Source: Actinomycetaceae bacterium
Lineage (GTDB): Bacteria; Actinomycetota; Actinomycetes; Actinomycetales; Actinomycetaceae
Direction of reading: 5' to 3'
Assembly: GCA_030537735.1 (NCBI GenBank)
Contig: JAUNVG010000001.1
Span: forward strand, 238,160 to 302,159
DNA length: 64,000 bases
Shown here: piece after piece, positions 25,778 through 50,080 of the stretch
Numbering within the stretch: position 1 is the stretch's first letter
Layout: each line of letters opens with the position of its first letter
Translations under genes and position numbers: made by a program
Notes under the pieces: generated by a model
Seen by the model: the letters and a program-made list of their open reading frames with translations, nothing else
What the model was told of the DNA's origin: nothing
The model's database searches: none

Positions 25778-26637
25778 CACCGCCCACACTCGATAGCAGT
25801 GGGGCACAGGCACCGCCCCTTCGCCGGCGCGCGCAAAGGCATGAGGCTGAATCCTCCGCGGTGGAGGACGCCTCGCTTTCTTTGCTGCGTTCTTTGCTTG
25901 ACGACCCGTTGAGCTACTACGTTGCTTCGCGCCCCAAGGTTAACCCTCGGCGTTCTTTTGCTGAGCGCGTATTGATTGGCGTACTGACTTTGCTAATGGC
26001 CTTCATGATCACTTGGTCGGTGCGTGCGCTGGTTTCGATGGCGGATCCGCAGGAGGTGGTGCGTGATGGTTTGGTTAGCCAAGTTAGTTCCCAGCGTGCC
26101 CAGTTGGAAAGCCTGTCGGGCCAGGTCGATGAGCTGAAAGGGCAGTTGTCGTTACTTTCTGCAGCTAATCCAGTTGCCACTGAGGTTGACTCCCAAAGTG
26201 CGTTGTCAGCGCAGTTGGATGAGCTTGAGGGCGAGGGTGTGGTCGTTACCTTGAGTGAGTCTGATTCCCAGGATCGGCAAAAGCGGGTACAGGATACGGA
26301 TCTGCGCATTTTGGTTAATGCCCTGTGGTCTGCGGATGCGGAGGGTATCAGCATCAATGGGGAGCGGTTGGGGCCGAACACCGCGATCCGTAGCGCCGGT
26401 GGCACGATTTTAGTTAACTTCAATCCGATAGTTGCCCCCTATCAAGTTGGCGCTATCGGTGACCAGCGGGCCTTGGAGTTAGCGGTTCGCCGGGGGGAGG
26501 CTAGTAAGTATTTCGATGCTTTGTCTTCGCTTTATGGCATTTCGGTTAAGATTGTTCGCCAACCCGACATTCACTTGGATAAAGCCGCACTTAACAGCCC
26601 AAAGTTAGCTACTGTTATGAGCACGGAGGAGGAATAG
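25756..26637 (+). CDS. DUF881-domain membrane protein
   Basis: N-terminal TM helix, coiled-coil segment, and LVNALWSADAEGISINGERL motif. First gene of the conserved DUF881-sbp-DUF881 triad. Confidence 0.65.
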   Translation: MDDSQRLAPPTLDSSGAQAPPLRRRAQRHEAESSAVEDASLSLLRSLLDDPLSYYVASRPKVNPRRSFAERVLIGVLTLLMAFMITWSVRALVSMADPQEVVRDGLVSQVSSQRAQLESLSGQVDELKGQLSLLSAANPVATEVDSQSALSAQLDELEGEGVVVTLSESDSQDRQKRVQDTDLRILVNALWSADAEGISINGERLGPNTAIRSAGGTILVNFNPIVAPYQVGAIGDQRALELAVRRGEASKYFDALSSLYGISVKIVRQPDIHLDKAALNSPKLATVMSTEEE

Positions 26638-26640
26638 AAC

Positions 26641-26973
26641 GTGATCGCTATTTTCGGGCTCATCATCGGAGTGGTTCTGGGGATCTTGATTGACCCGGAG
26701 ATTCCTTACGTGTTGCAGCCCTTCTTGCCCGTAGCTGTAGTGGCAGCGATTGACGCTCTTTTCGGGGGGACGCGTTCTTATTTGGATGGCCGCTTCTCGG
26801 ATCGGGTTTTCATTGTTTCCTTCTTCTGGAACGTGTTAGTCGCAGCGCTGCTGGTGTTCCTCGGTGGACAGTTGGGCGTGGGTGGAGCGATGACCACTGC
26901 GATCGTGGTGGTTTTGGGGATCCGGATCTTCTCTAACGCGGCCGCTATTCGCCGGCATATTTTTGGAGCTTAG
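26641..26973 (+). CDS. Small basic membrane protein (DUF1290/Sbp)
   Basis: 110-aa, 3-4 TM protein between two DUF881 genes, as in the M. tuberculosis Rv1823-1825 region. Confidence 0.6.
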   Translation: MIAIFGLIIGVVLGILIDPEIPYVLQPFLPVAVVAAIDALFGGTRSYLDGRFSDRVFIVSFFWNVLVAALLVFLGGQLGVGGAMTTAIVVVLGIRIFSNAAAIRRHIFGA

Positions 26974-27894
26974 ATGAGCTTGCCTGTAGATGGTGACAAG
27001 AATTCGCCTGCGCCGGCTCCGCAGTGGGATCAGCCTCCCACCCAGATGCTACCTGCGGTTGCGAATGCTCCAGCGTCGAAGGATTCACCGCCTGAGCCTT
27101 CAACAGGCGCGGGTTCATCTTCTTCTTCTTTTTCTTCCACGGTTCGGGCCGCTGCCCACACTTCCAACCAGTTTGGAGCTTCAAGCAAGCAGTCGAGCCG
27201 TCGCCTGCGGGATTTACTGGTTGCCCCTATTCGCCCGATCCATGTGGTTATCGCACTGATGTGCTTGGTGCTGGGGTTTGCTTTGGTGACCCAGATTAAG
27301 ATCCAACGCGCTGACCCGTTGGATAACTTGCACGAGGACGAGTTGGTGGTTTTGCTTGACCAGCTGACCACTTCGGAAAGGCAGTTGCGTAAACAGCGCA
27401 ATGAGTTGGCCGTCCAGGTGCAAAGGTTGCAGTCGTCGCATTCTCAGTATGAGGCGGCGAAGGAGGCAGCGCAGAAGGATGCGGAGCGAGCGCAGATAAT
27501 GGCGGGCACGGTGGCGGTGCATGGTCCGGGTTTGACGATGACTTTGCAGGAAGGCAATGAACCGATCACGGCGCATAGTTTTGTCAATATCTTGGGCGAG
27601 TTGCGCAATGCCGGAGCGGAAGCGATTGACGTAAATGGGCAGCGCATTACGGCTTCGAGTTACGTAACGACGGTGCCGGGTGGGTTGAGTATTTCGGGGT
27701 TCACGATCACGCCGCCCTATAGGTGGAGTGTGATTGGGGATGCGGACACGATTTTGCCTGCTTTAGATATTCCGCGGGGGGCGATTTCCCGGGTTCGTGG
27801 TAGTGGTTCTACGGTGACGTTTGAGCGTCATGATGATCTTAAGATCGTCTCAGTGTCGCTGCCGCAGTCTTACCGTTACGCTGAAGTGAAATAA
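26974..27894 (+). CDS. DUF881-domain membrane protein
   Basis: ATG immediately after the preceding TAG. TM helix plus coiled coil plus LRNAGAEAIDVNGQRI motif. Confidence 0.65.
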   Translation: MSLPVDGDKNSPAPAPQWDQPPTQMLPAVANAPASKDSPPEPSTGAGSSSSSFSSTVRAAAHTSNQFGASSKQSSRRLRDLLVAPIRPIHVVIALMCLVLGFALVTQIKIQRADPLDNLHEDELVVLLDQLTTSERQLRKQRNELAVQVQRLQSSHSQYEAAKEAAQKDAERAQIMAGTVAVHGPGLTMTLQEGNEPITAHSFVNILGELRNAGAEAIDVNGQRITASSYVTTVPGGLSISGFTITPPYRWSVIGDADTILPALDIPRGAISRVRGSGSTVTFERHDDLKIVSVSLPQSYRYAEVK

Positions 27895-27966
27895 TGAAGA
27901 TGCTTTAGGGTAAATTAGTAGGTAGTCTGTTATCTTCGTGTGATCGAGTTCTGTGAAGGAGTTCCG

Positions 27967-28401
27967 ATGTCGATTCCGAACGTCCCGGATCCCTCTGAAA
28001 CTGCTGTTTTCGGAGCTGTCGGGGTTCCCGCTGAGGTTGAGGAACCTGCGGTTCAGGCTCCCTTATCTGCTCGTGATCAGGCAGCGGTTGAGGCTTTGCC
28101 GGTGGGTTCAGCGTTGCTGATCGTGCAGCGCGGCCCTAATTCTGGTGCGCGTTTCCTGCTGGATGCGAGCCACACTAGTGCTGGTCGCAGCCCGAAGGCA
28201 GACATCTTTTTGGATGATGTGACGGTGTCGCGTCGTCACTGTGAGTTCATTGCTAGCGAGGGCGGATTCGTCGTTCGCGATTCTGGTTCCTTGAATGGCA
28301 CCTATGTTAACCGTGAGCGTACTGAACAGGCTGCGCTCAAGGCGGGCGATGAGGTTCAGATCGGCAAGTACCGCTTGACCTACCACCCCTCTCAAAACTG
28401 A
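27967..28401 (+). CDS. garA: FHA-domain regulator GarA/OdhI
   Basis: Near-identical core to GarA: LPVGSALLIVQRGPNSGARFLLD, DIFLDDVTVSRRHCEF, SLNGTYVNRE. N-terminal ETAVF phospho-motif region. Start taken at the internal ATG. Confidence 0.85.
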   Translation: MSIPNVPDPSETAVFGAVGVPAEVEEPAVQAPLSARDQAAVEALPVGSALLIVQRGPNSGARFLLDASHTSAGRSPKADIFLDDVTVSRRHCEFIASEGGFVVRDSGSLNGTYVNRERTEQAALKAGDEVQIGKYRLTYHPSQN

Positions 28402-29162
28402 TGGATTCCTCTGCCAAGAAGTCCTCTCCTGTCGTTGTTACGTCACCGACTCCCTGGCCGCGTGATGTTTCCCACCGTGCCCATTTGCCGATTGGGCAGG
28501 TACTTTCCCTGGTGAAGCCGGAGTTTCCGGCGCTGACTCTTTCGAAGATTCGTTACCTGGAAAAGGAGGGGTTATTAACCCCGAAGCGTACGGCGGCGGG
28601 TTACCGGCAGTATTCTGATGCCGATGTCCAACGCCTGCGTTACATCCTTACTTTGCAGCGGGATTCTTACTGCCCGCTGGAGGTAATCGGCGATCACTTG
28701 GCGGCTTTGGATGCTGGGCATGAAGATGAGCTTGAACCTACCGTGAAGGTGGTTAGTGAGGCCGGTAAAACTAAGGTTCCGGTGGGGTCTTCGGTTAGTG
28801 TGCGCCAGCTTTGCGATCTGACTGGGATTACTCGTGAAGAGGTGGAAAGCTACGTGAAGTTGGGGATTTTGACCCCTGACTTGGCGGGTTATTTTCCGGT
28901 GCGTGCGATCCAGATTGTGCAGCTGGTGGCGCAGATAAATAAGCTTGGTATTCCTACGCGGATGTTGCGTACTTTGCGTAATAGTGCTGAACGGCAAGCT
29001 GACCTGATCGATCAAACGGTGGATCCGATGCGGGCGCGTGGACGTTCCGGTGATGTGGAGCGTGCTCACGCTAAGGCGCAGCAGCTTACGGAGCAGTGCG
29101 CGAACCTTCATCGGGAGTTTTTGCGTGGGGCGGTTGATCGCTTGATGGAAAGCGGTAGATAA
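28401..29162 (+). CDS. MerR-family regulator (Rv1828/FtsR-like)
   Basis: HTH motif IGQVLSLVKPEFPALTLSKIRYLEKEGLLTPKRTAAGYRQYS. Conserved position after garA. TGATG overlap. Confidence 0.75.
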   Translation: MDSSAKKSSPVVVTSPTPWPRDVSHRAHLPIGQVLSLVKPEFPALTLSKIRYLEKEGLLTPKRTAAGYRQYSDADVQRLRYILTLQRDSYCPLEVIGDHLAALDAGHEDELEPTVKVVSEAGKTKVPVGSSVSVRQLCDLTGITREEVESYVKLGILTPDLAGYFPVRAIQIVQLVAQINKLGIPTRMLRTLRNSAERQADLIDQTVDPMRARGRSGDVERAHAKAQQLTEQCANLHREFLRGAVDRLMESGR

Positions 29163-29172
29163 CAATTTCATC

Positions 29173-29226
29173 TCAAGTTAAACTTGAACTTGAAGGCTAG
29201 CCGTGTCGGCATTGACGAATCAAGTT
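29173..29226 (+). promoter_or_regulatory. Candidate MerR-type operator / promoter region
   Basis: 15-nt palindrome TCAAGTT-a-AACTTGA (29173-29187), tandem ACTTGA (29088 region excluded; 29088 not used) at 29188-29193, and a third TCAAGTT at 29220-29226 next to a TTGACG -35-like hexamer (29212-29217). Confidence 0.35.
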
Positions 29227-29289
29227 TGACGCAATAGCGTGAAATACATTAACGGCTACAAAGCCCTAACTAACATTCCAGGAGACACG

Positions 29290-29850
29290 GTGAACAACAC
29301 TGCGAGCGCCTCACAATCAGGCCACCAGGGCATGCTTTTTGGCGATGTCCTTGCCGATCTTGGCCCCGACACCGGCTATCGCGGGAAGGTTGCTTGCCAG
29401 GCGGTCGGCATCACCTACCGGCAGCTAGATTATTGGGCACGAACCGGCCTAGTTGAACCTTCAATCCGCTCGGCGCAGGGTTCTGGAAGTCAAAGGCTGT
29501 ATTCTTTCCGGGACATCTTGGTACTGAAGGTTGTTAAGCGCCTGCTTGACACTGGGGTTTCTTTGCAGCAGATACGCGAAGCTATCCAGCACTTGAAGGA
29601 TCGTGGGGTAGAGGACCTAGCTACCATCACCCTGATGAGCGATGGCGCGTCCGTTTACGAGTGCCGCTCGCGCGATGAAATGATTGACCTCATTGAAGGT
29701 GGCCAGGGCGTTTTCGGCATTGCGGTTGGCCGCGTGTGGCGTGAGGTTGAGGGCTCACTGGCGGAGCTACCCACGGAAGAAGCTGAGGAAATTCCCGTTA
29801 TGGTCGATGAGTTAGCTGCTCGCCGGCGGGCGCGTCGCTACGTTTCTTGA
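29290..29850 (+). CDS. MerR-family regulator (Rv1830-like)
   Basis: Motif GYRGKVACQAVGITYRQLDYWARTGLVEPSIRSAQGSGSQRLYSFRDILVLKVVKRLLDTG. Start set at GTG 29290 behind an AGGAGA Shine-Dalgarno; the ORF track gives 29239. Confidence 0.75.
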   Translation: MNNTASASQSGHQGMLFGDVLADLGPDTGYRGKVACQAVGITYRQLDYWARTGLVEPSIRSAQGSGSQRLYSFRDILVLKVVKRLLDTGVSLQQIREAIQHLKDRGVEDLATITLMSDGASVYECRSRDEMIDLIEGGQGVFGIAVGRVWREVEGSLAELPTEEAEEIPVMVDELAARRRARRYVS

Positions 29851-29936: not shown

Positions 29937-32471
29937 CTAGGTCAGGGCCTGCGCTTTATTTACTGATTCCAGTATCTTAGTGCCACTCATTTGGCGGGCT
30001 TTGGACGCTGCGATCACTGTCAGGATCACCGAGCTTACGCCCCAAAGCAGCAGTCGGAATATGACTGAGGTGAGGGAGATGATCTCTCCACCTAGGACGG
30101 TGTGCGACAGTCCCGAAGACAGGATCGACAGTGGCACCACGCCTTCAATGGCGTGGAAAGCTTCGGGGGCAGTTTCAATCGGGATGACCCCGCCCAGTGA
30201 CACCACTTGTATGACTAGGAATAGCAGTGCCAGTAGGCGACCCAACCGAGCTCCCGCCACCGCCAGCATGGCTTGGTTTACGGCGGCGAAGACCGCTACC
30301 CCTAGGGCCACTAGGAAGGTGGTGGCGATGAGGTTTACCGGTTTGACGCCCATGGCCGTTGCCACCACGATCACGCCTAGCGCTTGTAGCGCACCGATCG
30401 CGAGGGCGGGCCAGAGGGAACGCCACGCTACCTGCCAAGAGGTGTGGGTAGAGGCCAGCAGTCGCCTGCGCAGTCCGGGCATAACCAGGTAGGCCCCGAA
30501 TGCTCCTATCCACAATACGATGGCGGCCGCCCAGGGGAAGACCACGTTCGCTAGTGCGGTGGCCTGGTTTATACGGTCATCTTGTGCGCGCACCGGGATA
30601 GCGCCCATTTTGACGATGCGGGTGCGTTCTGCATCGGTGTATGAGGGCACTTGCTGGGCGCCGTCTTCCAGTTCACTGGCAAAACGGGTGGTTCCTTTGA
30701 TTAGTTCCATTACACCTGCGTCGAGGGCGGATGCTCCTTGCGCTAGGGTGCTGCCACCTTCGGTTAGCTGCCCAGCCCCGTCAGCTGCCTGCGAAATACC
30801 CCCTGCTAACTCATCGGCTCCCGATGAGAGGGCTTGAGTTCCAGCCATTAGTTGGTTGATGCCGGATGCGAGTTGGCGTGATCCTCCAACCAAGGAAGGG
30901 TTAGTTCCGTCTCCGTTCAACGCGGTGTTGACTGTGTTTATGCCGTCTTTGAGCTGGGAGATCCCCTGGGCTAGGCCGGGTGAATCAGGTTTACCGTTTA
31001 CTCCCAGGTTTAGTTCTTGGGCACCTGCGGCCAGTTGATTGGCGCCGTCGCGAAGCTCGGTGAGTTTAGCGTCTATACCTTTTATGCCTCCTGCGGCTTG
31101 CAGCCGGTCGGTGAACTCTTCGATCTGGCGGCTAATGCGCAGCAAGTCATCCTTTAACTGTTCAACTCCCAGATCGCTAAGAGCCTGGTTCAACCGTGCC
31201 AGCACTTGATCTATTTCGGGATTGGAAGTCGGCCATTGCGCTATCACTGATTCCACGGTGGCGATGGCTGCGCGCAGTTGCTGACAGTCCTCAGGGCCGG
31301 TGGCTAAGGCTTCACATTCAGTTAGCGCTGCCTGCAGCTGGGGCAGTAGGCCGACATTATTGGCGTCTCCTTCTAACTGTCCACGCAGGGCCAGCAGTAG
31401 GCCGTTGGAGTCAGCTAGCGCTGCTTCCAATCGTTCAAGATCGGCTTGGATCTGGGCAGTGCTGGGGATCTGCTCTAAGTAGTCTTCGGGCAGGAGTTGT
31501 TCTAGTTCCATCAGGACTTTGGTGACTTTTTGCAAGCTGGTGGTGAGTGTTCCCACGCCTTCGCCTAGCTGGGCGCTTCCTTCAGCCAGGGCTTTAGTGC
31601 CTTCGGCTAGTCCGCCCGGGCCGTTAACTCCGGCGTCGATAGCCGATACCCCGCCTACCAGGCCGGGTTGCTGTTTCGTTCCAGCTACCCCTTGACCCAG
31701 TTGTGCCAGGCCACCTGCTAGCCTGTTTGCCCCGGCTTGTAGTTGTCCTACACCAGAGTTAAGTTCTCCAGCGCCCCCCGCCAGCGCTTGAGCGCCGTCA
31801 CTGGCCTCACCTAATCCGGAGGACAGTTCAGTTAACCCTGATGATAGTTGCCATGCTCCCGACGATAAGGCGGAGGAGCCTTGCCCTAAGCGTTTGGCGC
31901 CGTCATCTAGCTGGGCGGCTCCGTCAGCTGCTTGACCGAGTTGATCTTTCATCTCGTTGAATCCCAGGTATATCTGGTCAAGCATTCTTTCGGTAAATTC
32001 TGACCCCATCGAGTGGGCGGCAGCGTCGGCAATCTGTTGGGAAATCATTCCCATGATTTCGGAAGACGCATCGTTGGAAGTCACTGTTATGAGGGCGGCC
32101 TTAGCGTCTGTAGTGCCAATGGTGACCAGGTTTTCGGAGAATTTTTCCGGGATGGTGATTACCGCTTGGTATTTACCTTCAGCCAGGCCGGTGCGAGCGT
32201 TTTCTTCCTTCACCAAATGCCAGTTAAGGTTGGTGCGCACATCTTCCTTGGGGTACATGAGGCCGGAGGCCAGTTGGCGTCCTAGGGGCACCATTTGTTT
32301 AGTGCCGTTTAGTTCCATTTCCACGCCTTTATCGAGGTTCACGATAGCGGCAGGTATCTGGTCGAAGCGGTCGGTGCGCCCGGAGGTTGACCAAATAGTT
32401 AAGGCTGCGGCAAGGACCGGTAGCAGTAATGTGGCGATAATGGCTCGCCAGTCACGTAGTGATAAGTTCAT
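29937..32471 (-). CDS. YhgE/Pip-domain membrane protein (ABC-2-type C-terminal membrane domain)
   Basis: N-terminal TM helix. About 450-aa extracellular Ala/Gly/Leu/Gln-rich repeat region (motifs such as GAxxLxxG). C-terminal bundle of about 5 TM helices. ATGA overlap with the upstream MMPL gene. Confidence 0.75.
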   Translation of the reverse strand: MNLSLRDWRAIIATLLLPVLAAALTIWSTSGRTDRFDQIPAAIVNLDKGVEMELNGTKQMVPLGRQLASGLMYPKEDVRTNLNWHLVKEENARTGLAEGKYQAVITIPEKFSENLVTIGTTDAKAALITVTSNDASSEIMGMISQQIADAAAHSMGSEFTERMLDQIYLGFNEMKDQLGQAADGAAQLDDGAKRLGQGSSALSSGAWQLSSGLTELSSGLGEASDGAQALAGGAGELNSGVGQLQAGANRLAGGLAQLGQGVAGTKQQPGLVGGVSAIDAGVNGPGGLAEGTKALAEGSAQLGEGVGTLTTSLQKVTKVLMELEQLLPEDYLEQIPSTAQIQADLERLEAALADSNGLLLALRGQLEGDANNVGLLPQLQAALTECEALATGPEDCQQLRAAIATVESVIAQWPTSNPEIDQVLARLNQALSDLGVEQLKDDLLRISRQIEEFTDRLQAAGGIKGIDAKLTELRDGANQLAAGAQELNLGVNGKPDSPGLAQGISQLKDGINTVNTALNGDGTNPSLVGGSRQLASGINQLMAGTQALSSGADELAGGISQAADGAGQLTEGGSTLAQGASALDAGVMELIKGTTRFASELEDGAQQVPSYTDAERTRIVKMGAIPVRAQDDRINQATALANVVFPWAAAIVLWIGAFGAYLVMPGLRRRLLASTHTSWQVAWRSLWPALAIGALQALGVIVVATAMGVKPVNLIATTFLVALGVAVFAAVNQAMLAVAGARLGRLLALLFLVIQVVSLGGVIPIETAPEAFHAIEGVVPLSILSSGLSHTVLGGEIISLTSVIFRLLLWGVSSVILTVIAASKARQMSGTKILESVNKAQALT

Positions 32472-35197
32472 CGGGCTGTCGCCTCCTGCGGTAGAGCTGA
32501 GGGCACAAAATATTCATCCTCAGGGGCGTCGAATTGCCAGCGGCATGCTGGTGTCAAGATTGCGGCGCTGCCGTTTCGCAATTCGCGTTCGATTAGTTCA
32601 GCTTCTTTACGGTTTATGGGCCTATCAATGAGGTATAGCTTTTGCTTGTTTTGCCGTTTTTTCCGTCCGCCAAGGGGTGTGTATGGAAGGTCTGCTCTTT
32701 GTTCCAGTAGGGGAGTGCGGGCTACTACACGGCCGCTTTCATCGGCCGTTGAGGTGTCGAAGACAAATAGGGTGCCTTCATCCAGGCGGGCACGCCCGCC
32801 GAATGCCAGCAGCAGTGCGCGAGTGGCTCCGCGTGCACCATCCAGGCGCAGTATCTGCCCGGGCCGCACCGCGACGGTGGCGTTATCAACTATCTTCGTT
32901 GCCCGGCCACCGATGGTGACCTCATGGGCACGTGCTACCACTTCGCCGTACTGTTTTTGCCAATCTAGATGCCTGAATCTTTCATCCATTCCCATACCTT
33001 CAACGTCAAAGGTAGGCAGCATCCGGTCGAGCCATGGCGGAATGTACCAGGCCCTATCGCCCAGGATTTGCAGCACCGCAGGCACCAGGGTCATGCGCAC
33101 TAAGAAGGCATCTACTGCCACACCGACGGCGAGGCCGAAGGCAATGGGTTGGACGTAGAAGGACCCGCCCGGGATAAAGCCGGAGAACACCGAAATCATG
33201 ATCAGTGCCGCCACCACTACCACGGTGGCTGAGGCGTTGAAACCGGTGTGGATGGATTCGCGGGCTTTACCTGAGTGCACGTAGTCTTCGCGAATGCGTG
33301 AAACTAGGAACACTTCGTAGTCCATCGCCAGGCCAAACAGCACGCCCATAAGAATGATGGGCATGAAGGAGATAACGGGCCCGACCTGGCCGATCAGTAG
33401 CGCATCATTAGCCCAGCCTTTGATGAACACTAGGGTAGTGGTACCAAAGGCCGCTCCCACCGAAAACAGGTAGCCAACGGTGGCTTTTATCGGCACCCAG
33501 AGGGAGCGGAAGACGATGGTGAGCAAAACTAGCGATAGCCCCACAACGATGATCCCGAAAGGCAGTAGGGCTTTAAACAGTTGTTCAGATACGTCGATGG
33601 CTACCGCTGCTGAACCGGTGACCATGGTGTTGGAGATTCCGTAGGTTTGTTCCCATTCGGGGGCGGCATTTCTGAGCGCATGCACGAGGTTTTCGGTGGA
33701 GGCAGCTTCGGGGCCTTCGCGTGGAATTATGGCAACTATCCCCAGGTCGGCTTTCCGGTTAGGAGTCGATAGTTGGATATGGTCCACATCTTTGATCTTG
33801 CTGATGTCATCAGCCAGGTCGTCCATAAGTTTCAGGGGATCTTCAGAGGTAATGATGTCGGTGATTACCAGCAGTGGACCGTTTGCGCCAGCTCCGAAGT
33901 TTTCTTCCACCAGGTCGTAGGTTTGGCGCCCCATGGTGGATTCGTCTTCTACGCCGTTATCTGGCAGTGCCAGGCGCAGGGCATAGGACGGCACTGTCAT
34001 AACCGCCACTAAGGCGGTTACCGCGAGGATCGTTAGCCACGGGTGGGAAGTGGTGACCGACACCCACCAGGCTGCCGGGGTGCGCCGGCGCGGTGCTTTT
34101 TCAGGTTGTTCCTGTAGGTCGGCAGATAGTATTTCTGCTTCCTCTTCGGGGGCGTCAGTTTGCTTCTTGCGTCGCGATTTTTTCGGTTTCGGGCGTAGCC
34201 TGTCACCCAGTACCGCCAGCAGCGCCGGGAGGCCGGTCACCGCGATAAGTGCGGCAATAGCGACGGCGAGTGCAGCGCACATACCCATAACCGACAGGAA
34301 GGGAATGTTGGCAACGATCAGAGCAAGGAGGGCGATCACTACCGTTGTGCCCGCAAATAGTACCGCGCCGCCAGAGGTGGCGATGGCGCGGGGAATGGAT
34401 TCTGCCACTGTGTATCCGTGTCGGAGCTGGTCGCGGTGGCGTGAAACTATGAATAGTGCGTAGTCGATTCCCACAGCCAGCCCCAGCATGATCGCCAGTG
34501 TCGGGGTGGTGGTGGAGATAGGAACGACTGCGGCGATTAGCATTACGATCACCATCGCTATTGCCACTCCGGTGATGGCGGAGATAATAGGTACAGAGGC
34601 GGCAATAAACGATCCGAAGGTGAGTGCCAGTACCACTAGAGCCAAGGCAACGCCGGCGGCTTCCGTGGCAGATAGGGGTACTTCCGTGGTTGACATGATG
34701 TTGCCACCCACGTGTACGTCCAGGCCTGCTTCACTGGCTTCGCTGGCTGTCTTTACGACCTCATCCACCACCTTTTGGTCGATGGAGTCCAGCCCGAATT
34801 CGAACTGTACTTGCCCCAGGGCGTAGCGTTGGTTGTCGGAAACCAGGGGGTCCATGAGGCTATCGTCAAAGGGATTGGAAGAAGTCAGTACGCTTTCAAT
34901 TTCGCCGACCTTCGACATGGTTTCTTCGATGGTTTGCTGGTAGTCGTAGATGTTCTTTCCCTCATCTACGCCGAAGACGATTTGTCCGGAAGTTCCGGAT
35001 AGTTCTTCGAAGCGTTCTTCCAGCACGTCCAGTCCTTCTTGGCCTTCGGTGCCGGGGATAGTGAAGTCGTTCGTGAGTTGCCCACCGACAGTAAACATGG
35101 CAACTACCGTGATTACGAGCATTCCTATCCAGGCAGCGAGGACGGCACGGGCGTGAGAGACCGTGTAGTTGGCTATACGGTAAAGAACAGATGACAC
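32468..35197 (-). CDS. MMPL-family (RND superfamily) transporter with extra C-terminal cytoplasmic domain
   Basis: Two 6-TM blocks, each with a periplasmic domain, and a basic linker KPKKSRRKKQ. The canonical MMPL end is ...WYIPPWLDRMLP, followed by 180 extra aa. Start set at GTG 35197 behind GGAGAA; the ORF track gives 35293. Confidence 0.8.
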   Translation of the reverse strand: MSSVLYRIANYTVSHARAVLAAWIGMLVITVVAMFTVGGQLTNDFTIPGTEGQEGLDVLEERFEELSGTSGQIVFGVDEGKNIYDYQQTIEETMSKVGEIESVLTSSNPFDDSLMDPLVSDNQRYALGQVQFEFGLDSIDQKVVDEVVKTASEASEAGLDVHVGGNIMSTTEVPLSATEAAGVALALVVLALTFGSFIAASVPIISAITGVAIAMVIVMLIAAVVPISTTTPTLAIMLGLAVGIDYALFIVSRHRDQLRHGYTVAESIPRAIATSGGAVLFAGTTVVIALLALIVANIPFLSVMGMCAALAVAIAALIAVTGLPALLAVLGDRLRPKPKKSRRKKQTDAPEEEAEILSADLQEQPEKAPRRRTPAAWWVSVTTSHPWLTILAVTALVAVMTVPSYALRLALPDNGVEDESTMGRQTYDLVEENFGAGANGPLLVITDIITSEDPLKLMDDLADDISKIKDVDHIQLSTPNRKADLGIVAIIPREGPEAASTENLVHALRNAAPEWEQTYGISNTMVTGSAAVAIDVSEQLFKALLPFGIIVVGLSLVLLTIVFRSLWVPIKATVGYLFSVGAAFGTTTLVFIKGWANDALLIGQVGPVISFMPIILMGVLFGLAMDYEVFLVSRIREDYVHSGKARESIHTGFNASATVVVVAALIMISVFSGFIPGGSFYVQPIAFGLAVGVAVDAFLVRMTLVPAVLQILGDRAWYIPPWLDRMLPTFDVEGMGMDERFRHLDWQKQYGEVVARAHEVTIGGRATKIVDNATVAVRPGQILRLDGARGATRALLLAFGGRARLDEGTLFVFDTSTADESGRVVARTPLLEQRADLPYTPLGGRKKRQNKQKLYLIDRPINRKEAELIERELRNGSAAILTPACRWQFDAPEDEYFVPSALPQEATAR

Positions 35198-35217
35198 GAG
35201 TTCTCCATAAACTTCTA

Positions 35218-35271
35218 ATACATAAGCGTATTCGATACTTCTATGTATCGTTCCAATACTATAATGTATCG
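35218..35271. promoter_or_regulatory. Divergent promoter with candidate TetR operator
   Basis: AT-rich island. Imperfect 31-nt palindrome ATACATAagcGTATtcgATACttcTATGTAT (35218-35248). Direct repeat ATGTATCG (35244 and 35264). Perfect TATAAT at 35260-35265, upstream of tetR. Confidence 0.4.
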
Positions 35272-35307
35272 AGGTAACTACAAACCCGTTCAACGAAGAG
35301 AGCCAAG

Positions 35308-35922
35308 ATGGACCTGAGACTTAAACGGCGGCGCGAACACACGCGCGAGCGGATTGTGGCAGCAGCCGCCAAAGTATTTGCCAATAAGGGTGTGGCAGGT
35401 GCAACAGTGGACGACTTGTCACAGGCCGCTGGCTTCACCCGCGGGGCGTTTTATTCGAATTTCGCCACTAAAGAAGAGGTCTTCACCGAAACCCTGACCA
35501 CCTTCACCCAGGAGTTGGTCACCAGGATCTATGACGAGATAGAAATTCTCGATAGGGAAGTGGCCCCCGAAACTGCCATGCGCGCAATCCTGCGAGCCAC
35601 CCGCCCCCAGGGGCAGCTGTGGGTGCTACTGGAAGCAGAAGGTATGCGCCAAGCCCTGGTGAACGATTCTATCCGGGATGTATATCTTAAGAATCGCGAT
35701 TACCTAGCGCGGGCGCTGGTGCACGTGCTGTCCACTTCGGCTACTGATTTTCATCACCAAAGCCTCACCTGGGAGCGCACCGCTGAAGAGTTGCAAAACC
35801 TAGCTGAACTAATCCTTGCAACTTACGCCCAGGTTTTGATGCTAGATCACCTGCAGGGAGAAGACTCCACCGAACGCCTGTTGGATCTACTGCAGACACT
35901 CATTTTTCCCTTGAACGATTAG
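35308..35922 (+). CDS. TetR/AcrR-family transcriptional regulator
   Basis: HTH motif RERIVAAAAKVFANKGVAGATVDDLSQAAGFTRGAFYSNFATKEE. Divergent from the MMPL operon. Confidence 0.85.
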   Translation: MDLRLKRRREHTRERIVAAAAKVFANKGVAGATVDDLSQAAGFTRGAFYSNFATKEEVFTETLTTFTQELVTRIYDEIEILDREVAPETAMRAILRATRPQGQLWVLLEAEGMRQALVNDSIRDVYLKNRDYLARALVHVLSTSATDFHHQSLTWERTAEELQNLAELILATYAQVLMLDHLQGEDSTERLLDLLQTLIFPLND

Positions 35923-36818: not shown

Positions 36819-37586
36819 TTACTCCCCCGTAGCTCCACAAAGAATTGACTTTACCTTTTCTTTACGTTGCCAGAGTCCCCATTTAGTGACATTAATCAGT
36901 TCCTCTTTAATAATGTCCCCATCCATCTTGGACTCCCCTGCTCGTCGCTCCAGGAACACAATCGGAACTTCCACAATGCGAGCCCCGCGCCGCGCCGCAC
37001 GCCAGGTCATCTCTACTTGGAAACCATAGCCTCGTGACTGTACTTCCCCACTGTCGACTAACTCGCGCAAAATGGGATGGCGGTAAACCCGAAATCCGGC
37101 AGTGGCATCGGCCACCCCCAAACGTAACAGGGCTTGGATGTAGGCGTTACCTAAGCGAGATAGCGCAATACGATGGGCACCCCAACCTTGAGTGCCACCG
37201 TTTGGAACCCAACGCGATCCAATCACTAAATCAGGCTTATCACTTTGCTGCGCCCGCTCGATTAGCCGAGTTAAATCCACCACCCGGTGCGAGCCATCAG
37301 CATCCATTTGGATGAAATACTCGTATCCGCGTTCAAGCCCCCAGGCGAAACCATCCAAGTAGGCACTAGCCAAACCAGACTTGGCTGGCCGCTGCATCAA
37401 ATGGATCTGATCATTGGCTCTTTTCTCCACCCATTGGCCGGTGCCGTCGGGGCTGGAATCATCCACCACCAGCACATGCACCTGCGGAAGGTGGGTGAAC
37501 AGGGCTCCCAGTAAACCAGGCAAATTCTGTAGCTCGTTATAAGTGGGGATAACTACCAAAGTGGGGACCGAAATATTCATGGTCAT
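36819..37586 (-). CDS. ppm1: Polyprenol-phosphate mannose synthase (GT2), Ppm1 catalytic subunit
   Basis: Motifs VVIPTYNE, VVDDSSPDGT and MDADGSH. Convergent with rbpA and downstream of lnt, as in mycobacteria and corynebacteria. Start set at ATG 37586. Confidence 0.8.
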   Translation of the reverse strand: MTMNISVPTLVVIPTYNELQNLPGLLGALFTHLPQVHVLVVDDSSPDGTGQWVEKRANDQIHLMQRPAKSGLASAYLDGFAWGLERGYEYFIQMDADGSHRVVDLTRLIERAQQSDKPDLVIGSRWVPNGGTQGWGAHRIALSRLGNAYIQALLRLGVADATAGFRVYRHPILRELVDSGEVQSRGYGFQVEMTWRAARRGARIVEVPIVFLERRAGESKMDGDIIKEELINVTKWGLWQRKEKVKSILCGATGE

Positions 37587-37605
37587 AGTATATCCACGCG
37601 CTGAC

Positions 37606-39207
37606 TTAGCGTTTCCGCCTCCGTTTAGTCCGTCCTCGCTTGCTCTCAAGCACGTGCAAGTAGAGGGATGAAAACACGACTAGCCCCCACGCACTCATCG
37701 CGAAGGTGTCAACCACCGGTTTGAAGCGAGCGGAAAAAGTCACGGTATGTCGAAGCGGTAGGTTAGCTACTCGCCAACTAGGTTCAAATAGTTTAGTGTC
37801 GGCCAGCACCGAACCATCGGGGTAGATTAATGCAGATACGCCGTTAGTGGACACTTGCACAGCGCTTCTAGAAAGCGACATGGCCCGCAGGCGCACCATT
37901 TGCAGCTGCTGGGTTGATTCGGCGGAATACCCGAAGGAAGAGTTATTCGTAGGCACCACAATAAGCGCGCCTCCGTCCCGCACCGGGCCGGCAAAAATCC
38001 GTTCGTATGCGGCTTCAAAGCAAATACCAATCGCTATCGGCAGTTGCTTACCACCGGCCAATTCTAACGTCATTAGGCCCGGCTCCTTGCCGGGCAGCAT
38101 GTCCGCATGGATGCGCGCGGTTTCCTTCGAAAGGATAGACAGAAAATCCCGCATAGGGATGTATTCACCGAAAGGAACGGGCAACTGTTTAGTGTAGGTA
38201 GGTCCGACCTGACCGCCAGGTAGGATTGCCACCGCATCGTTATACCGATAACCATCTTCGTAGCGAACAGTGCCCACTAGCAGCGGTACCTTTACCAACT
38301 GTGATGCTTGCTTCACTCGCCTCATAGTTTCGGGGTTTGCAGATAAATCCCGATCTAGGGAGTTTTCTCCCCAAAGCACCAAGTCGGCATCCATTCCCTC
38401 GGAAACAGCTTTGCCAGTGGTGTTCAAATGATTGTCGGTAACCTTATGTTCTTGCGCAAAAGTAGCATCTGCGGGTAGCTCTACGTTTCCCTGTATTAGG
38501 CCGACTCGAACGGCTCCGTCTTCCTGCTGCGCTGGCAGGGGAAGCAGGATCGGTAAGATCGCCAAAGCTAAAGCTCCGATCCCCGCTATTGGGCGTGTCC
38601 ACCAGCGGGTTGGACGTTGCCACTCCACCAAGGAAAACACTCTTCGCAATGCCACCGATATCATCAGTAAAGCGACCGCGATAGTGACCTCACTACCCCA
38701 CGGCGCTAAATGCCCCAGCGGGGAATCCACTTGCGAATAGGACACTAGCGCCCAGGGGAAGCCTCCGAACGGTATCCGGCTGCGTACCTGTTCCATCCCC
38801 GCCCAGGTTAAGGCTATGAGTACGGCGTCAAACAAAATGGAGTTTAAACGTAAACGCAAAGGACGCATTAAAGCTATGGTTGCTGCCCACGCCCCGATGA
38901 AGAGTCCTTGGATTCCAGCTAGGACAGCCCACGGCAGGTAGGTTCCTACCGAAATAGTGGCCCACCAAATATGCGCCAGGAAGAAGCTCCAGCCAAAGAT
39001 GAATCCATACCAGGCTGCCCGCCCCGTCCTCACCCGATCGACTGCACTAATTACTAATGCCAAGGAAGGGGCAGCTAAATACCAGGCACCGATGTCTGGG
39101 AAAGTTGCCCACAGTCCCAGTGCGCCCAGCGCTAGTAAGATGTAGTCCCAGCCTCGCCGCGAACCGCGTGCGGCTTCAACACGTTTAGAGGCTAACTTAG
39201 CGCCCAT
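37606..39207 (-). CDS. lnt: Apolipoprotein N-acyltransferase (Lnt/Ppm2)
   Basis: N-terminal multi-TM region plus CN-hydrolase domain (VRVGLIQGNV, LVLWGENS, IGICFEAAYE). Start set at ATG 39207. The ORF-track N-terminal extension is the alternate frame of the helY tail. Confidence 0.8.
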   Translation of the reverse strand: MGAKLASKRVEAARGSRRGWDYILLALGALGLWATFPDIGAWYLAAPSLALVISAVDRVRTGRAAWYGFIFGWSFFLAHIWWATISVGTYLPWAVLAGIQGLFIGAWAATIALMRPLRLRLNSILFDAVLIALTWAGMEQVRSRIPFGGFPWALVSYSQVDSPLGHLAPWGSEVTIAVALLMISVALRRVFSLVEWQRPTRWWTRPIAGIGALALAILPILLPLPAQQEDGAVRVGLIQGNVELPADATFAQEHKVTDNHLNTTGKAVSEGMDADLVLWGENSLDRDLSANPETMRRVKQASQLVKVPLLVGTVRYEDGYRYNDAVAILPGGQVGPTYTKQLPVPFGEYIPMRDFLSILSKETARIHADMLPGKEPGLMTLELAGGKQLPIAIGICFEAAYERIFAGPVRDGGALIVVPTNNSSFGYSAESTQQLQMVRLRAMSLSRSAVQVSTNGVSALIYPDGSVLADTKLFEPSWRVANLPLRHTVTFSARFKPVVDTFAMSAWGLVVFSSLYLHVLESKRGRTKRRRKR

Positions 39208-42148
39208 TATTCGCTTCCGGCTCCCACTCGGGGATAGTTTCGTCTGCCGGCTCCCACTCGGGGATAGTTTCGTCTGCCGGCTGTTCCCACCAGGCTTCCT
39301 CCTCAGGCGCAGCATCGGATGATACGGCAACTATCGGGGCTGAACCGGGTTCGCTAACCGAAACCACCGACCGGCGGATCGATTGGATTGCCCACTGGGC
39401 GTTAGTAGCTACCTGTCCCCCAGCAATCACCTGTATCTGATGTAAAACATCCACAACCTGGCGACACCAGCGCACCCAGTCCCCGGCTTCCAGGTCAGCA
39501 GCCCGCACGGTAGTAGCCAGGTCATCTCCTTGCACCCACCAGTACATAGCTGAGACCAGCCCTGTTTCAAGCGGTGCCGAAGTCACGGTTCGAGCTTGCG
39601 CTTCAGCGCGCTGAATTGTGCCCATAATCTGCTGCGTGCGGTTCAACGCCTTACCCAGTTTGCCACTCACACCACCAGGTATCTCAGTGTCGGGCAAATG
39701 ATCTTTACGAGATTCAAAAACACATGCGCTCACAACCGCGGCGAGCTGCGCGGGGTCAAGCTCGTCCCAGATCCCCTGATCCAGTGCCAAAGCCAAAACC
39801 AGGTCACGTTCAGCGTAGATGCGGCGCAATAGTTGCCCGGTAGGGGTCAACTGTGTGCCCTCCATGCAGCCAACCTGCTGTAGGACTTGCACTACAGCAT
39901 CGAATCGGCGCCCCAGGGAGGAAGTACGCGAACGCACCTGCCCATTCAAAGCCTGATAGTCGCGCCTAGCATGCAACCATGACTTCGCCTCCCGCGCATG
40001 CATGTCCCTGTGTTCACACTGGTGAACCGGGTGTGAGCGGATAAGATTTTCTAACTTTTGAATCTGACTGCGCTGAGCTTGCGTCAACGGGTTCTTCATA
40101 CGCTTAGGACGCCTAAGCTTCTTCTGCCTACGCATGTAACGCAGATCTTTAGCTATTAGCCCCTTGTACTTACCCACCGCGCGCAGCCAGGTAGAGGGCA
40201 AACGCATGCGCCCCACGACCGCGAATCCTTCATCCAAAGCAGCCGGGCCAACAGCTCGCGCTCCCCCACCGTCATAGACAATCTGAATCGTGCCGCTACC
40301 GTTGTCAGCTCGAGTCACCACTGCATCGGTATATCCCCCGCCATCAGGGATGGAAATCACATCCCCCACACGCAAAGACAGTAGTTCTTGCGCCAGATAG
40401 TTCAGTTCAATCCGATTACGTGAACGCGCAGTTCGTTTTTGTAACAGTGCCAGTTCATCACGTGCTATAACGTATTCTTGCGCATCCCCCTTAGAGCACT
40501 CCCACTTCCTACCGACCGCTTCCATCTTCTCTTTAGCTTCTTTGGCTTGACGGGCAAGCTCCACCACCTGCCGGTCAGTTTGGAACTGCGCAAAAGACCT
40601 CTCAACCAGGGATCTAGCTTGTTCCAAACTTCCAGCCGCAGCTAGGTTAGCCACCATGTTGTAAGTCGGTGCAAAAGCAGAAATCAATGGGTATGAACGT
40701 TTAGATGCAAGGGCTGACACTAACGCGGGTTCTATCTCGTCACGGTAAACCACCACCGCATGACCTAAAGTATCAATACCGCGCCGCCCGGCTCGCCCAG
40801 TTAGCTGCGTGTACTCTCCCGCGGTCAGACCAACGTGGGAGTGCCCGTTGTATTTAGTCAACGACTCCAACACCACGCTACGTGCCGGCATGTTAATACC
40901 CAAAGCCAGGGTTTCCGTGGCGAAAACTAGCTTCACCAGGCCGGTACTGAAAAGCTTTTCAACGATTTCTTTGAAAAGGGGAAGCATCCCCGCGTGGTGG
41001 GCAGCAACACCCATCTCCAGCGCCTGGGCAAAAGAATACGCCCGCAGCACCTTCAACTCACTGGCAGGTAACGTCTCCAGCGCTGGCTCCACCAGCGCCC
41101 GGATTCGCCTGCGCTCATCTTCACTAGTTAGCTCAATACCGGCGCTTACCACCTGCTGCACCGCTTCATCGCAGCCGGCGCGGGAAAAAATGAAATAAAT
41201 GCCCGGAAGCAGATTCGACCGATCCAAAGTGATCGCCACTTCAGGACGGGAACTGCGAACGCTGCGTCGACGCACATTGCGCATGCGACGCCCTCCCGCT
41301 AACTGCCTTTCACGTTGGGCAGCCGAACGTGACTGCAGCCCACTGGCACGGGCAATAGCAGAACGCAACTGCGGATTTATCTGCGAAGAATGCCGACTCG
41401 GGCCCACACCGCCAGCTTGTTCTTCTTTTACATAAAGGTCATGTAGCGTTCGCCCCACCAACATGTGCTGACGCAAAGGTACCGGGCGGACTTCGGAAAT
41501 AATGACGTCGCAACCGTTTCGCACGTGCCCGATCCAGTCCCCGAACTCTTCGGCGTTAGATACGGTCGCTGACAATGCGATTGCACGCACATTTTCAGGC
41601 ATAAGGATAAGAACTTCTTCCCACACCGGGCCGCGGAACTTATCGGCAAGATAATGCACCTCATCCAACACCACAAAACCCAGGTCGCTCAAGTCCTTGC
41701 CCGCATAAATCATATTGCGAGCCACTTCGGTGGTCATGACAATCACCGGCGCCTGCGCGTTAATGGCTACATCCCCGGTGAGCAGGCCGACGTTTTCACT
41801 GCCGAAGCGTTCCCCTAGGTCACGGTACTTCTGGTTAGAAAGAGCCTTCATGGGGGTGGTGTAAAAGGCTCTCTCCCCGCGCTGCAAGGCCAGGTAGCAG
41901 GCAAACTCCCCCACCACGGTTTTACCTGCTCCCGTGGGCGCTGCGACAAGCACATTATGGCCATCTTCAACGCTAGCTAAAGCGGTTTGCTGGAAGTCAT
42001 CGAGGATGTAACTCAAGGTCTGCTGGTAGCGTCCCCGGTGGCTGCGCTCCGTAGCCGCACGGGCCTTAGCATCCCGGTAACGCTGTGCCGCGCTAAGGTT
42101 ATCTGAGTTAGCTTCCGACCCCCGACGGCGCCGACGGCGTGCACTCAC
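39197..42148 (-). CDS. helY: Ski2-like DEAD/DEAH-box helicase HelY
   Basis: Walker A AAPTGAGKTVVGE, DEVH box (VLDEVHYL), and a long C-terminal Ski2/DSHCT-like region. Position next to tatC-tatA-pafCB. Confidence 0.85.
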   Translation of the reverse strand: MSARRRRRRGSEANSDNLSAAQRYRDAKARAATERSHRGRYQQTLSYILDDFQQTALASVEDGHNVLVAAPTGAGKTVVGEFACYLALQRGERAFYTTPMKALSNQKYRDLGERFGSENVGLLTGDVAINAQAPVIVMTTEVARNMIYAGKDLSDLGFVVLDEVHYLADKFRGPVWEEVLILMPENVRAIALSATVSNAEEFGDWIGHVRNGCDVIISEVRPVPLRQHMLVGRTLHDLYVKEEQAGGVGPSRHSSQINPQLRSAIARASGLQSRSAAQRERQLAGGRRMRNVRRRSVRSSRPEVAITLDRSNLLPGIYFIFSRAGCDEAVQQVVSAGIELTSEDERRRIRALVEPALETLPASELKVLRAYSFAQALEMGVAAHHAGMLPLFKEIVEKLFSTGLVKLVFATETLALGINMPARSVVLESLTKYNGHSHVGLTAGEYTQLTGRAGRRGIDTLGHAVVVYRDEIEPALVSALASKRSYPLISAFAPTYNMVANLAAAGSLEQARSLVERSFAQFQTDRQVVELARQAKEAKEKMEAVGRKWECSKGDAQEYVIARDELALLQKRTARSRNRIELNYLAQELLSLRVGDVISIPDGGGYTDAVVTRADNGSGTIQIVYDGGGARAVGPAALDEGFAVVGRMRLPSTWLRAVGKYKGLIAKDLRYMRRQKKLRRPKRMKNPLTQAQRSQIQKLENLIRSHPVHQCEHRDMHAREAKSWLHARRDYQALNGQVRSRTSSLGRRFDAVVQVLQQVGCMEGTQLTPTGQLLRRIYAERDLVLALALDQGIWDELDPAQLAAVVSACVFESRKDHLPDTEIPGGVSGKLGKALNRTQQIMGTIQRAEAQARTVTSAPLETGLVSAMYWWVQGDDLATTVRAADLEAGDWVRWCRQVVDVLHQIQVIAGGQVATNAQWAIQSIRRSVVSVSEPGSAPIVAVSSDAAPEEEAWWEQPADETIPEWEPADETIPEWEPEANNGR
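39217..39282. repeat. 30-bp tandem duplication (2.2 copies) inside the helY 3' end
   Basis: CCGGCTCCCACTCGGGGATAGTTTCGTCTG occurs at 39217-39246 and 39247-39276, then CCGGCT. It encodes PADETIPEWE twice in HelY. Confidence 0.9.
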
Positions 42149-49874: not shown

Positions 49875-49964
49875 TGGTTAGGTGTCAGAGCCAATGCTTG
49901 CTCAGATACTTCGCGTTCAATGTCGCAATGCTTTTAGAACGCTAAGCACGCTGCCGCAGTGGCC

Positions 49965-50080
49965 TGTTGCTCCTCCCATCCGGACTTTAACCGTCGGTAC
50001 CGGAATTTCACCGGTTCAACCGCTTGCGCGGGTCGCGGACTATAACCGCCGGTTCGGAGTTTCACCGACCCCGGAGCTTT
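49965..50080 (-). promoter_or_regulatory. FMN riboswitch (RFN element)
   Basis: The minus strand reads GCUCCGGGGUCGGUGAAACUCCGAACCGGCGGUUAUAGUCCGCGACCCG...GAACCGGUGAAAUUCCGGUACCGACGGUUAAAGUCCGGAUGGGAGGAGC. This matches the conserved RFN core of the B. subtilis ribD leader almost block for block, with a closing P1 helix GCUCC/GGAGC. Confidence 0.85.

Follow-up and report, generated by a model that had tools for sequence, protein, structure and literature searches.

A C-terminal domain descended from ABC ATPases in MMPL transporters encoded next to YhgE/Pip proteins

Background

What are the remains of an ATPase doing at the C terminus of a proton-driven pump? The question is raised by a 64,000-nucleotide stretch of DNA from an Actinomycetaceae bacterium (GenBank assembly GCA_030537735.1, contig JAUNVG010000001.1, positions 238,160 to 302,159), which is hereafter called the window and to which all positions refer unless a locus is named. 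It contains a gene for an MMPL transporter, a lipid/drug exporter of the resistance-nodulation-division (RND) superfamily, whose product continues for about 180 residues past the end of the transporter core. A preliminary description made from the sequence had taken this tail for a degenerate and shortened ATP-binding cassette (ABC) ATPase. RND/MMPL pumps, which use the proton gradient, and ABC transporters, which use ATP, are treated as separate machines; the MMPL family found here bears the remains of an ABC ATPase and is tied to a YhgE/Pip membrane protein encoded by the next gene.

The MMPL gene and its C-terminal tail

The MMPL gene is on the minus strand, in an open reading frame (ORF) at 32468..35293 that has 941 codons when counted from its first TTG (35293). 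The GTG at 35197 is more likely the start and would yield a protein of 909 amino acids, because the consensus N-terminus of the family is MSSxLYR and a database copy that is 100% identical (P0001) is 909 amino acids long. The choice between these two starts has no effect on the tail.

The transporter core occupies 33014..35197 (minus strand). Pfam model PF03176 matches the protein with an E-value of 1.4e-83 (281 bits, cut-off 20.5) in two stretches that correspond to the two MMPL repeats, and MmpL3 structures in PDB match residues 206-774 (E 2e-44). Two Asp-Tyr pairs, located in GIDYALF and AMDYEVF at the equivalents of transmembrane helices (TMs) 4 and 10, are invariant in our full-length alignment, A2. 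In MmpL3 crystal structures, these pairs form the proton relay. Judged by its sequence, the core is MmpL3-like, yet it is no MmpL3 orthologue; the equivalog model for MmpL3, NF052608, gives 191 bits against a cut-off of 1400 and does not reach its threshold.

The core ends with WYIPPWLDRMLP (residues 749-760, window 33014-33049), and the match to MmpL3 structures stops at residues ~761-774. A further 181 residues follow the core (window 32471-33013, minus strand). The preliminary description had noticed these extra residues, and was one residue short in giving them as 180 at 32471-33010. The strings in which it had recognized the order of an ABC domain (VTIGG...GARGATRA...AFGG, LLEQ, PLGGRKKRQ, KLYLIDRP and AAILT) are all present.

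Relationship of the tail to ABC nucleotide-binding domains

The tail of the window protein is a domain left unannotated by Pfam, whose models include no family that matches it. Among NCBIfam models, only ABC ATPase families respond, and these matches are weak or sub-threshold (E 0.007-0.2) and cover the first ~90 residues of each family. The best match to the sequence in PDB is the ABC-F protein YheS (E 0.002). A word-index search for homologues that used the tail alone returned no match, not even its own protein, which reflects the limited sensitivity of such searches with short queries and says nothing on uniqueness.

When 45 non-redundant tails are combined into a profile, called A1, matches in PDB are almost exclusively to ABC nucleotide-binding domains (NBDs). 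The best are NBD2 of ABCA4 (E 5.7e-7) and TM0544 (9e-7), and others include ABCA3, MRP4, CbiO, FtsE, CcmA and MsbA. The match is split into two pieces. Profile positions 35-145 align with the NBD from its N-terminus through the Q-loop, which is the first ~100 residues, whereas positions 132-179 align with Walker B through the H-loop in ABCA4 and ABCA3, and the stretch skipped between the two pieces is the helical subdomain. A Pfam scan of all 45 aligned tails gave scattered weak noise and no match to ABC_tran.

A structure of the tail predicted by AlphaFold2 with A1 has a pLDDT of 90 and a pTM of 0.83, and is uncertain only at model residues 121-137. Both the RecA-like core and the antiparallel beta subdomain that is specific to ABC proteins are present in it. 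With this model as a query, Foldseek reports 539 matches in PDB at E<=1e-3, of which the top 50 are ABC NBDs with TM-scores of 0.5-0.57 and E-values down to 1.3e-8. Proteins matched include CcmA, FtsE, CbiO, the LivF-like 1ji0, ABCA7, MlaF, LptB and MacB. In a model of the full-length protein (pLDDT 82.9, pTM 0.78), the tail has a pLDDT of 80-93 except in a linker (<50).

The resemblance is far beyond chance, and the tail is a folded domain descended from an ABC NBD, whose RecA-like core and ABC beta subdomain it has kept. Profile and structure searches thus bear out the central claim of the preliminary description, that of a degenerate and shortened NBD.

The tail is encoded entirely on the minus strand and begins, after TM12, with the linker helix TFDVEGMGMDERFRHLDWQKQYG (32945..33013), which is its most conserved stretch and forms a helix at residues 19-34 of the tail model. 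The first half of the NBD core follows (32699..32944; A1 35-145, pLDDT 91-98) and consists of the antiparallel beta subdomain, an RPG turn, a helix at the P-loop position and a GR..G strand, up to LLEQ at the Q-loop position. It includes GARGATRA (32816..32839), a Walker-A remnant without GK[ST]. The variable basic linker RADLPYTPLGGRKKRQNKQ (32642..32698) then replaces the helical subdomain and the signature; its pLDDT is 62 when the tail is modelled alone and <50 when the full-length protein is modelled. Next comes the other half of the core (32546..32641; A1 132-179), which contains the Walker-B-like strand LYLIDRP, a helix and the strand AAILTPA at the H-loop position. A C-terminal strand (residues 177-181 of the tail model) and a short, poorly conserved end with a pLDDT of ~60 complete the tail (32471..32545).

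State of the nucleotide-binding motifs

We aligned 180 tails of the window's clade to the tail profile and counted the residues at each motif position. The Walker A pattern G-x4-G-K-[ST] occurs in none of the 180, and neither does LSGGQ. At the P-loop position, the consensus of the family is (G)D.xARRA and the window has GARGATRA, although alignment of the latter with GxxGxGK[ST] is uncertain by one position. The position of the Walker-B Asp is D in 57%, E in 18% and N in 8% of the family, and the Asp is kept in the window (LYLIDR). The position of the catalytic Glu is occupied by G (20%), R (19%), D (18%) and also by Ser, with Arg in the window. The position of the H-loop His is similarly mixed (R 18%, A 13%, P 13%, and Ser), and is Ala in the window (AAILTPA).

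Residues that are conserved in the tail are structural. The D, E and G of DVEG in the DVEG...H..W helix are each conserved at 99% and the W at 88%, and high conservation is also seen for G52 of the RPG turn (86%), for G73 (90%) and R74 (96%) of the GR pair, and for G80 (98%).

Most correspondences drawn in the preliminary description agree with the profile alignment. What it took for a beta-strand and Walker A coincides with the beta-strand, RPG turn and P-loop helix, and GK[ST] is absent as it had said. KLYLIDRP is indeed the Walker B region, with Asp retained and Glu changed to Arg, and AAILT falls in the H-loop region without the His. Loss of the helical subdomain is likewise evident, given the gap around which the A1 match is split and the linker found in its place. 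The Q-loop Gln of ABCA4 does have its counterpart in the Q-loop-like LLEQ, but this Gln is not a conserved feature of the family, in which tail position 105 is variable (A 20%, D 14%, L 11%, R 11%).

One correspondence does not hold. PLGGRKKRQ had been equated with the LSGGQ signature, but because it lies within a variable and disordered linker (pLDDT ~62) that differs among close relatives, we reject it as a signature remnant. The true signature position can be seen in relatives with longer tails as L..L(P/G)..R, and is deleted in the window tail. The linker, ~19 residues that are rich in Arg and Lys, occupies the position of both the helical subdomain and the signature, and is divergent even between tails that are 60-65% identical (PRRRGRSDKS, SRWRGRFTKP, NSASAKRKSY).

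The tail lacks the Gly and Lys of a P-loop, a catalytic Glu and an H-loop His, as the preliminary description had also pointed out. Without these motifs and a subdomain, the window tail is ruled out as a canonical ATPase. The loss of motifs speaks against both binding and hydrolysis of ATP, and the tail is almost certainly a vestigial, non-catalytic NBD. Most likely, it serves as a scaffold that does not hydrolyze ATP.

Distribution of the tail and intermediate forms

The tail is widespread among relatives of the window protein. The motif that ends the MMPL core could be located in 110 of the best 120 full-length homologues, and in all 110 it is followed by a tail, whose length is 129-284 residues and in nearly every case 160-225. 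These homologues are from Actinomycetaceae, Bowdeniella, Nocardioides, Brachybacterium, Georgenia and Devriesea, and none of the 120 closest has an ABC domain on record. An exhaustive HMMER search with A1 over 1.84 billion cluster representatives found 219 proteins at E<=1e-10 and 4139 at E<=1e-3, the latter number being an upper bound because some genuine ABC proteins are among them. Among the best 150 matches, 148 were newly returned, and 122 of these 148 contain the MMPL end motif, the rest being mostly fragments. For analysis of gene context, related loci were collected by full-length alignment with one genome scanned per species, which gave 80 loci.

Long tails of 247-275 residues are found in Microbacteriaceae (Agromyces, Cryobacterium, Clavibacter, Pseudoclavibacter, Microcella, Agrococcus, Herbiconiux and Salinibacterium). 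They have an insertion of 60-80 residues, corresponding to the helical subdomain, exactly at the position of the window's linker. A profile of ten long tails, A3, matches EcfA from end to end (E 3.5e-10; profile 24-245, chain 3-216), and its degenerate signature position is followed by hhhhD. A single long tail gives marginal matches in PDB (E 0.2-0.5), and it is the ten-sequence profile that is decisive. Profile matches of short tails lean toward ABCA proteins and TM0544, and those of long tails toward EcfA and CbiO. Both forms can occur side by side: a Herbiconiux locus (L051; 453-5254 and 6001-11000) has tandem MMPL and YhgE/Pip systems, one with a short tail of 202 amino acids and one with a long tail of 258.

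Walker A is perfect (GPSGSGKS/T and similar) in a sister clade of tails that are also fused to MMPL proteins and for which PF00005 is on record. Members of this clade are P0269-P0274, P0288, P0304, P0309, P0313, P0320, P0356, P0364 and P0372, and it is represented by loci L085 and L086. There is a long form of 262 residues (e.g., P0304 of Aeromicrobium) and a short form of 190-200 residues (e.g., P0313 of Fodinicola), and both share hhhhDD as their Walker B sequence, a signature that is degenerate, and a Gln in place of the H-loop His. Proteins of the sister clade, some of which have the helical subdomain and others not, may bind ATP without hydrolyzing it.

Two complete stand-alone proteins among the best matches, P0257 and P0259, are ABC_tran proteins (35.9 and 36.2 bits) and match the tail profile at ~6e-15. 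The Lys of their Walker A motifs is replaced by Arg (GPARSGRT, GAQGEGRT). Their genes are located directly upstream of YhgE-like ABC2_membrane_3 genes, and an MMPL gene is absent (L083:1006-4028, L084:1240-3235). NBDs associated with YhgE/Pip proteins may be atypical as a class.

Taken by their motifs and lengths, MMPL-fused tails exist in four states: a full NBD with an intact P-loop, a full but degenerate NBD, a truncated NBD with an intact P-loop, and the truncated and degenerate NBD of the window. In a rough neighbour-joining tree of MMPL cores, genes without a tail, with a long tail and with a short tail form separate clades. Tail-less proteins from Streptomyces and Nocardia (L056, L068 and L072) end in LP-x-(L/V)-D-(V/I)-E-G-E, the motif that opens the linker helix of the tail, and this end may reflect a secondary loss of the tail together with YhgE/Pip. 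In L072, a different C-terminal extension, of 334 residues, is in place of the tail.

Linkage to YhgE/Pip

The gene that follows the MMPL gene, at 29937..32471 on the minus strand, encodes a YhgE/Pip-family membrane protein of 844 residues. It matches TIGR03061 with 113.1 bits (cut-off 96.15) and TIGR03062 with 101.5 bits, which is marginally under the cut-off of 102.2, and it contains 11 copies of the xxxLxxG repeat TIGR03057. ABC2_membrane_3 (PF12698) also matches, with an E-value of 5.2e-13 and 49.2 bits (cut-off 31.6). One N-terminal TM is followed by an extracytoplasmic coiled-coil of ~600 residues composed of xxxLxxG repeats, and then by five C-terminal TMs of the ABC-2 type. We sought a solved structure of a YhgE/Pip protein by sequence and found none. 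The TGA stop codon of the MMPL gene and the ATG start codon of the YhgE/Pip gene share bases in an ATGA overlap (32468..32471). This translationally coupled downstream gene, which is the decisive context of the tail, was missed in the preliminary description.

To measure the linkage, we used 84 MMPL genes, taken from 82 fetched loci (L001 and L002 belong to the same species) and the window. Among these genes, 66 have a tail and 18 do not. The 66 include L032, whose tail is in another frame through a frameshift, and L061, whose long tail was missed by the hidden Markov model of short tails. YhgE/Pip is the next gene in all 65 tail-bearing cases for which downstream sequence exists; in the remaining locus, L077, the contig ends. 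The YhgE/Pip start overlaps the MMPL stop by 4 nucleotides in 52 of these 65 loci and by 1 nucleotide in 7. By contrast, no YhgE/Pip gene was found within 6 kb in any of the 18 tail-less relatives (Streptomyces, Nocardia, Kineosporia and Amycolatopsis albidoflavus). Genes of the sister clade with an intact P-loop are likewise followed by YhgE/Pip (L085, L086), and the association of tail and YhgE/Pip spans several orders.

Flanking genes for a genuine ABC ATPase are not a regular feature of these operons in the related loci, and there is none in the whole 64-kb window. On the other side of the MMPL gene, a divergent gene encodes a TetR-family regulator (35308..35922, plus strand; PF00440, E 3.1e-12). 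A TetR gene is within 600 nucleotides of the MMPL start in most related loci, and TetR, the MMPL protein with its NBD tail, and YhgE/Pip constitute a three-gene module that is conserved across Actinomycetota.

Giant single ORFs that join MMPL and YhgE, namely P0233 and a 1686-amino-acid ORF in L032 (5785-10845, Leucobacter sp. HNU), were considered as natural fusions, but were rejected as artefacts of frameshifts, because some of their stretches are rich in Arg and out of frame and the tail can be read in a different one. Database proteins that appear to be MMPL-YhgE fusions should be treated with care.

Possible functions of the tail

Probably, although with considerable doubt, the tail is a former ATPase of YhgE/Pip that became fused to the pump and now serves, independently of ATP, to dock it to YhgE/Pip. 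The ancestral domain would have been the ATPase subunit of a YhgE/Pip permease of the ABC-2 type, like the stand-alone pairs in L083 and L084, and a gene fusion would have joined this subunit to the proton-driven MMPL pump. The job that it retained, and that needs no ATP, would be to dock on the cytoplasmic face of YhgE/Pip. MMPL and YhgE/Pip would then reside in one complex, plausibly with a 2:2 stoichiometry, because ABC-2 permeases act as dimers. Drawing on the proton gradient through its intact Asp-Tyr relay, the MMPL protein would extract a hydrophobic substrate, and the long extracytoplasmic coiled-coil of YhgE/Pip would work with it in the cell envelope. Since energy would come from the proton-driven partner, selection on ATP hydrolysis would be relaxed, which would explain the graded decay among relatives.

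A coupling role for the tail, between MMPL and YhgE/Pip, is by itself somewhat better than an even bet. The overlap of stop and start codons fits equimolar production of the two proteins, and control by TetR fits an inducible exporter of hydrophobic compounds. Such an exporter also fits observations in Saccharopolyspora hirsuta, in which cholesterol induces a YhgE/Pip gene and the MMPL gene next to it together, 3.8- and 3.3-fold (PMC9782250).

Several points weigh against a dock of this kind. Tail-less genes form one clade, and therefore the co-occurrence of tail and YhgE/Pip is phylogenetically clustered and represents few independent events. The cytoplasmic loop between TM2 and TM3 of YhgE/Pip, which is the candidate coupling helix, is not conspicuously conserved. 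Moreover, the coupling helix of canonical ABC transporters sits in a groove partly formed by the helical subdomain, and because this half of the groove is missing, docking cannot be fully canonical.

Tentatively, one might go further and regard the system as a true RND-ABC chimera, in which an ABC-2-type permease came to be powered not by ATP hydrolysis but by the MMPL motor, which runs on the proton-motive force. By way of the rigid DVEG linker helix and, beyond it, the vestigial NBD, changes in pump conformation would be transmitted to YhgE/Pip. Its coiled-coil, acting in mechanotransmission or as a conduit that spans the envelope, would be driven to move lipids or other hydrophobic compounds through the thick wall of a Gram-positive cell. 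The progression from a full NBD with an intact P-loop, through a degenerate full NBD, to a truncated and dead NBD would then represent a stepwise hand-over of energy coupling. We regard this extension as possible but doubtful.

The tail might instead be a self-contained regulatory or oligomerization module of the MMPL protein, such as a nucleotide-free NBD-like homodimer or an autoinhibitory plug, that makes no contact with a YhgE/Pip protein whose gene is merely co-regulated. NBDs dimerize by nature, the tail is predicted confidently within the full-length model (pTM 0.78), and the helical subdomain that canonical coupling to a transmembrane domain needs is absent. Nevertheless, YhgE/Pip accompanies the tail without exception in the 65 loci, mostly with overlapping start and stop codons, which speaks for a contact, as do the nearest relatives of the tail outside MMPL proteins, which are NBDs encoded in pairs with YhgE-like permeases. 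A canonical head-to-tail NBD dimer also requires Walker A, the signature and ATP, and the protein has neither motif. On balance, a self-contained module seems rather improbable. That the tail is a functionless relic carried along by the MMPL ORF is very unlikely. Its catalytic motifs are gone, one subdomain is deleted, and it evolves faster than the core (25-30% versus ~47% identity in the same protein pairs), yet its length is similar and its frame undisrupted across Actinomycetales, Micrococcales, Propionibacteriales and Pseudonocardiales. The structural residues G52, G73, R74 and G80 are 86-98% conserved, the fold is confidently predicted from sequences that are only ~27% identical, and one would expect a useless appendage of 180 residues to disappear, as it has from the tail-less clade.

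Noncanonical binding of nucleotide, by which the window tail would act as an ATP- or ADP-sensing switch on the pump, is very unlikely. The perfect Walker A (GPSGSGKS) and hhhhDD of the sister clade count in its favour, as do the two Gly and the Arg that the window keeps near the P-loop position and its Walker-B Asp. However, GK[ST] is lacking throughout the window's clade, the P-loop is one residue shorter than canonical, its positions vary freely (GPRTAARA, GAPLATEA, GSPIAQEA, GDPAACKA), and the signature motif, Q-loop conservation and His are all absent. Finally, the weak single-sequence E-values and the failure of Pfam to match the tail could be taken to mean that some other alpha/beta fold resembles an ABC NBD by coincidence. 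This explanation is scarcely credible, since ABC NBDs are indicated by profile and structure searches alike, and also by the long-tail intermediates and by a sister clade that Pfam recognizes.

Literature searches on MMPL proteins together with YhgE or phage infection protein, on MmpL proteins with a degenerate C-terminal NBD, and on pseudo-ATPases that have no helical subdomain yielded no account of such an architecture. We likewise found no paper on the MMPL-NBD fusion, on its degenerate or truncated forms, or on an obligatory YhgE/Pip partner; automatic Pfam annotation of MMPL and ABC_tran in some sister-clade proteins is already on record. The constancy of the tail and YhgE/Pip points to an undescribed RND-ABC hybrid export machine. 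If the two proteins do form one complex, it would give a physiological role to YhgE/Pip proteins, which have so far been known mainly as phage receptors and parts of type VII secretion systems (T7SSs), and would add a new type of accessory partner for MMPL pumps. It would also be a natural example of an NBD that became an adaptor free of nucleotide, and the intermediates that still exist would allow the course of this evolution to be tested.

Comparison with known systems

The RecA-like core and ABC beta subdomain are common to the window tail and to ABC NBDs, including those with degenerate sites in TM287/288, TAP1 and CFTR, and the elements follow the same order: beta1-beta2, the P-loop position and its helix, the Q-loop position, the Walker-B strand and the H-loop strand. 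However, known degenerate NBDs retain the helical subdomain, Walker A and ATP binding, whereas the window tail has lost its P-loop and, by deletion, the helical subdomain and signature. Also, ABC NBDs serve an ABC permease, whereas that of the window is fused to a pump of the RND superfamily.

Mycobacterial MmpLs such as MmpL3 share with the window protein the 12-TM MMPL core and two Asp-Tyr proton-relay pairs. MmpL3 also has a C-terminal cytoplasmic extension, and because the MmpL3 match ends at query residues ~761-774, that extension has no sequence similarity to the window tail. Partners of mycobacterial MmpLs are of the MmpS, TtfA or AcpM type, whereas the partner of the window MMPL would be YhgE/Pip; no search for partners of those other types was made in the window.

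The YhgE/Pip, EsaA and YueB family (phage infection protein; TC 9.B.74) is related to the ABC-2 superfamily (PMC3924187). The downstream gene in the window shares with this family the N- and C-terminal domains, xxxLxxG repeats and ABC-2-type membrane domain. Characterized members, such as Lactococcus Pip and B. subtilis YueB/EsaA, are phage receptors or T7SSb components. They are not known as partners of an MMPL pump or an NBD, whereas the window gene is paired with both.

A precedent for cooperation between MMPL and ABC-2-type proteins is MmpL7 with DrrABC in M. tuberculosis, an MMPL pump and an ABC-2-type transporter that are both implicated in export of the lipid phthiocerol dimycocerosate (PDIM) (PMC11539658). 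DrrABC has its own ATPase, DrrA (PMC11539658), whereas the NBD of the window is predicted to be inactive and is fused to the MMPL protein. In Type VII mechanotransmission ABC systems (MacB, FtsEX and LolCDE), large extracytoplasmic domains are driven from the cytoplasmic side via an NBD, as may also be the case here, and the NBDs of FtsE and MacB are among the structural matches of the window tail. Those systems depend on ATP hydrolysis by intact NBDs, however, and their permease fold differs from ABC-2.

Other features of the window

An imperfect palindrome, ATACATAAGCGTAT-tcg-ATACTTCTATGTAT (35218..35248), is a candidate TetR operator. Its two 14-nucleotide arms are 79% complementary and 3 nucleotides apart, and it is located in the AT-rich divergent gap between the TetR start (35308) and the likely MMPL start (35197). 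The YhgE/Pip gene is directly followed, on the other strand, by two DUF881 paralogues and then by two genes for MerR-family regulators (25756-29850, plus strand).

A 745-codon ORF at 4772-7009 (plus strand) fuses cytidylate kinase (Cmk) to the GTPase Der/EngA, which has two MMR_HSR1 domains and a KH-like domain. Outside the MMPL finding, this is the only canonical P-loop ORF in the window. The sole tRNA gene is for tRNA-Pro (GGG), at 12737-12811 (minus strand), and an FMN riboswitch (RF00050, 100 bits) is found at 49964-50082 (minus strand). A gene for apolipoprotein N-acyltransferase (Lnt_N and CN_hydrolase) overlaps one for a family-2 glycosyltransferase at 36819-39330 (minus strand), which recalls the Lnt-Ppm1 arrangement of mycobacteria, and this pair is adjoined by a gene for a HelY-like DEAD/DSHCT helicase and by tatC (39197-42963).

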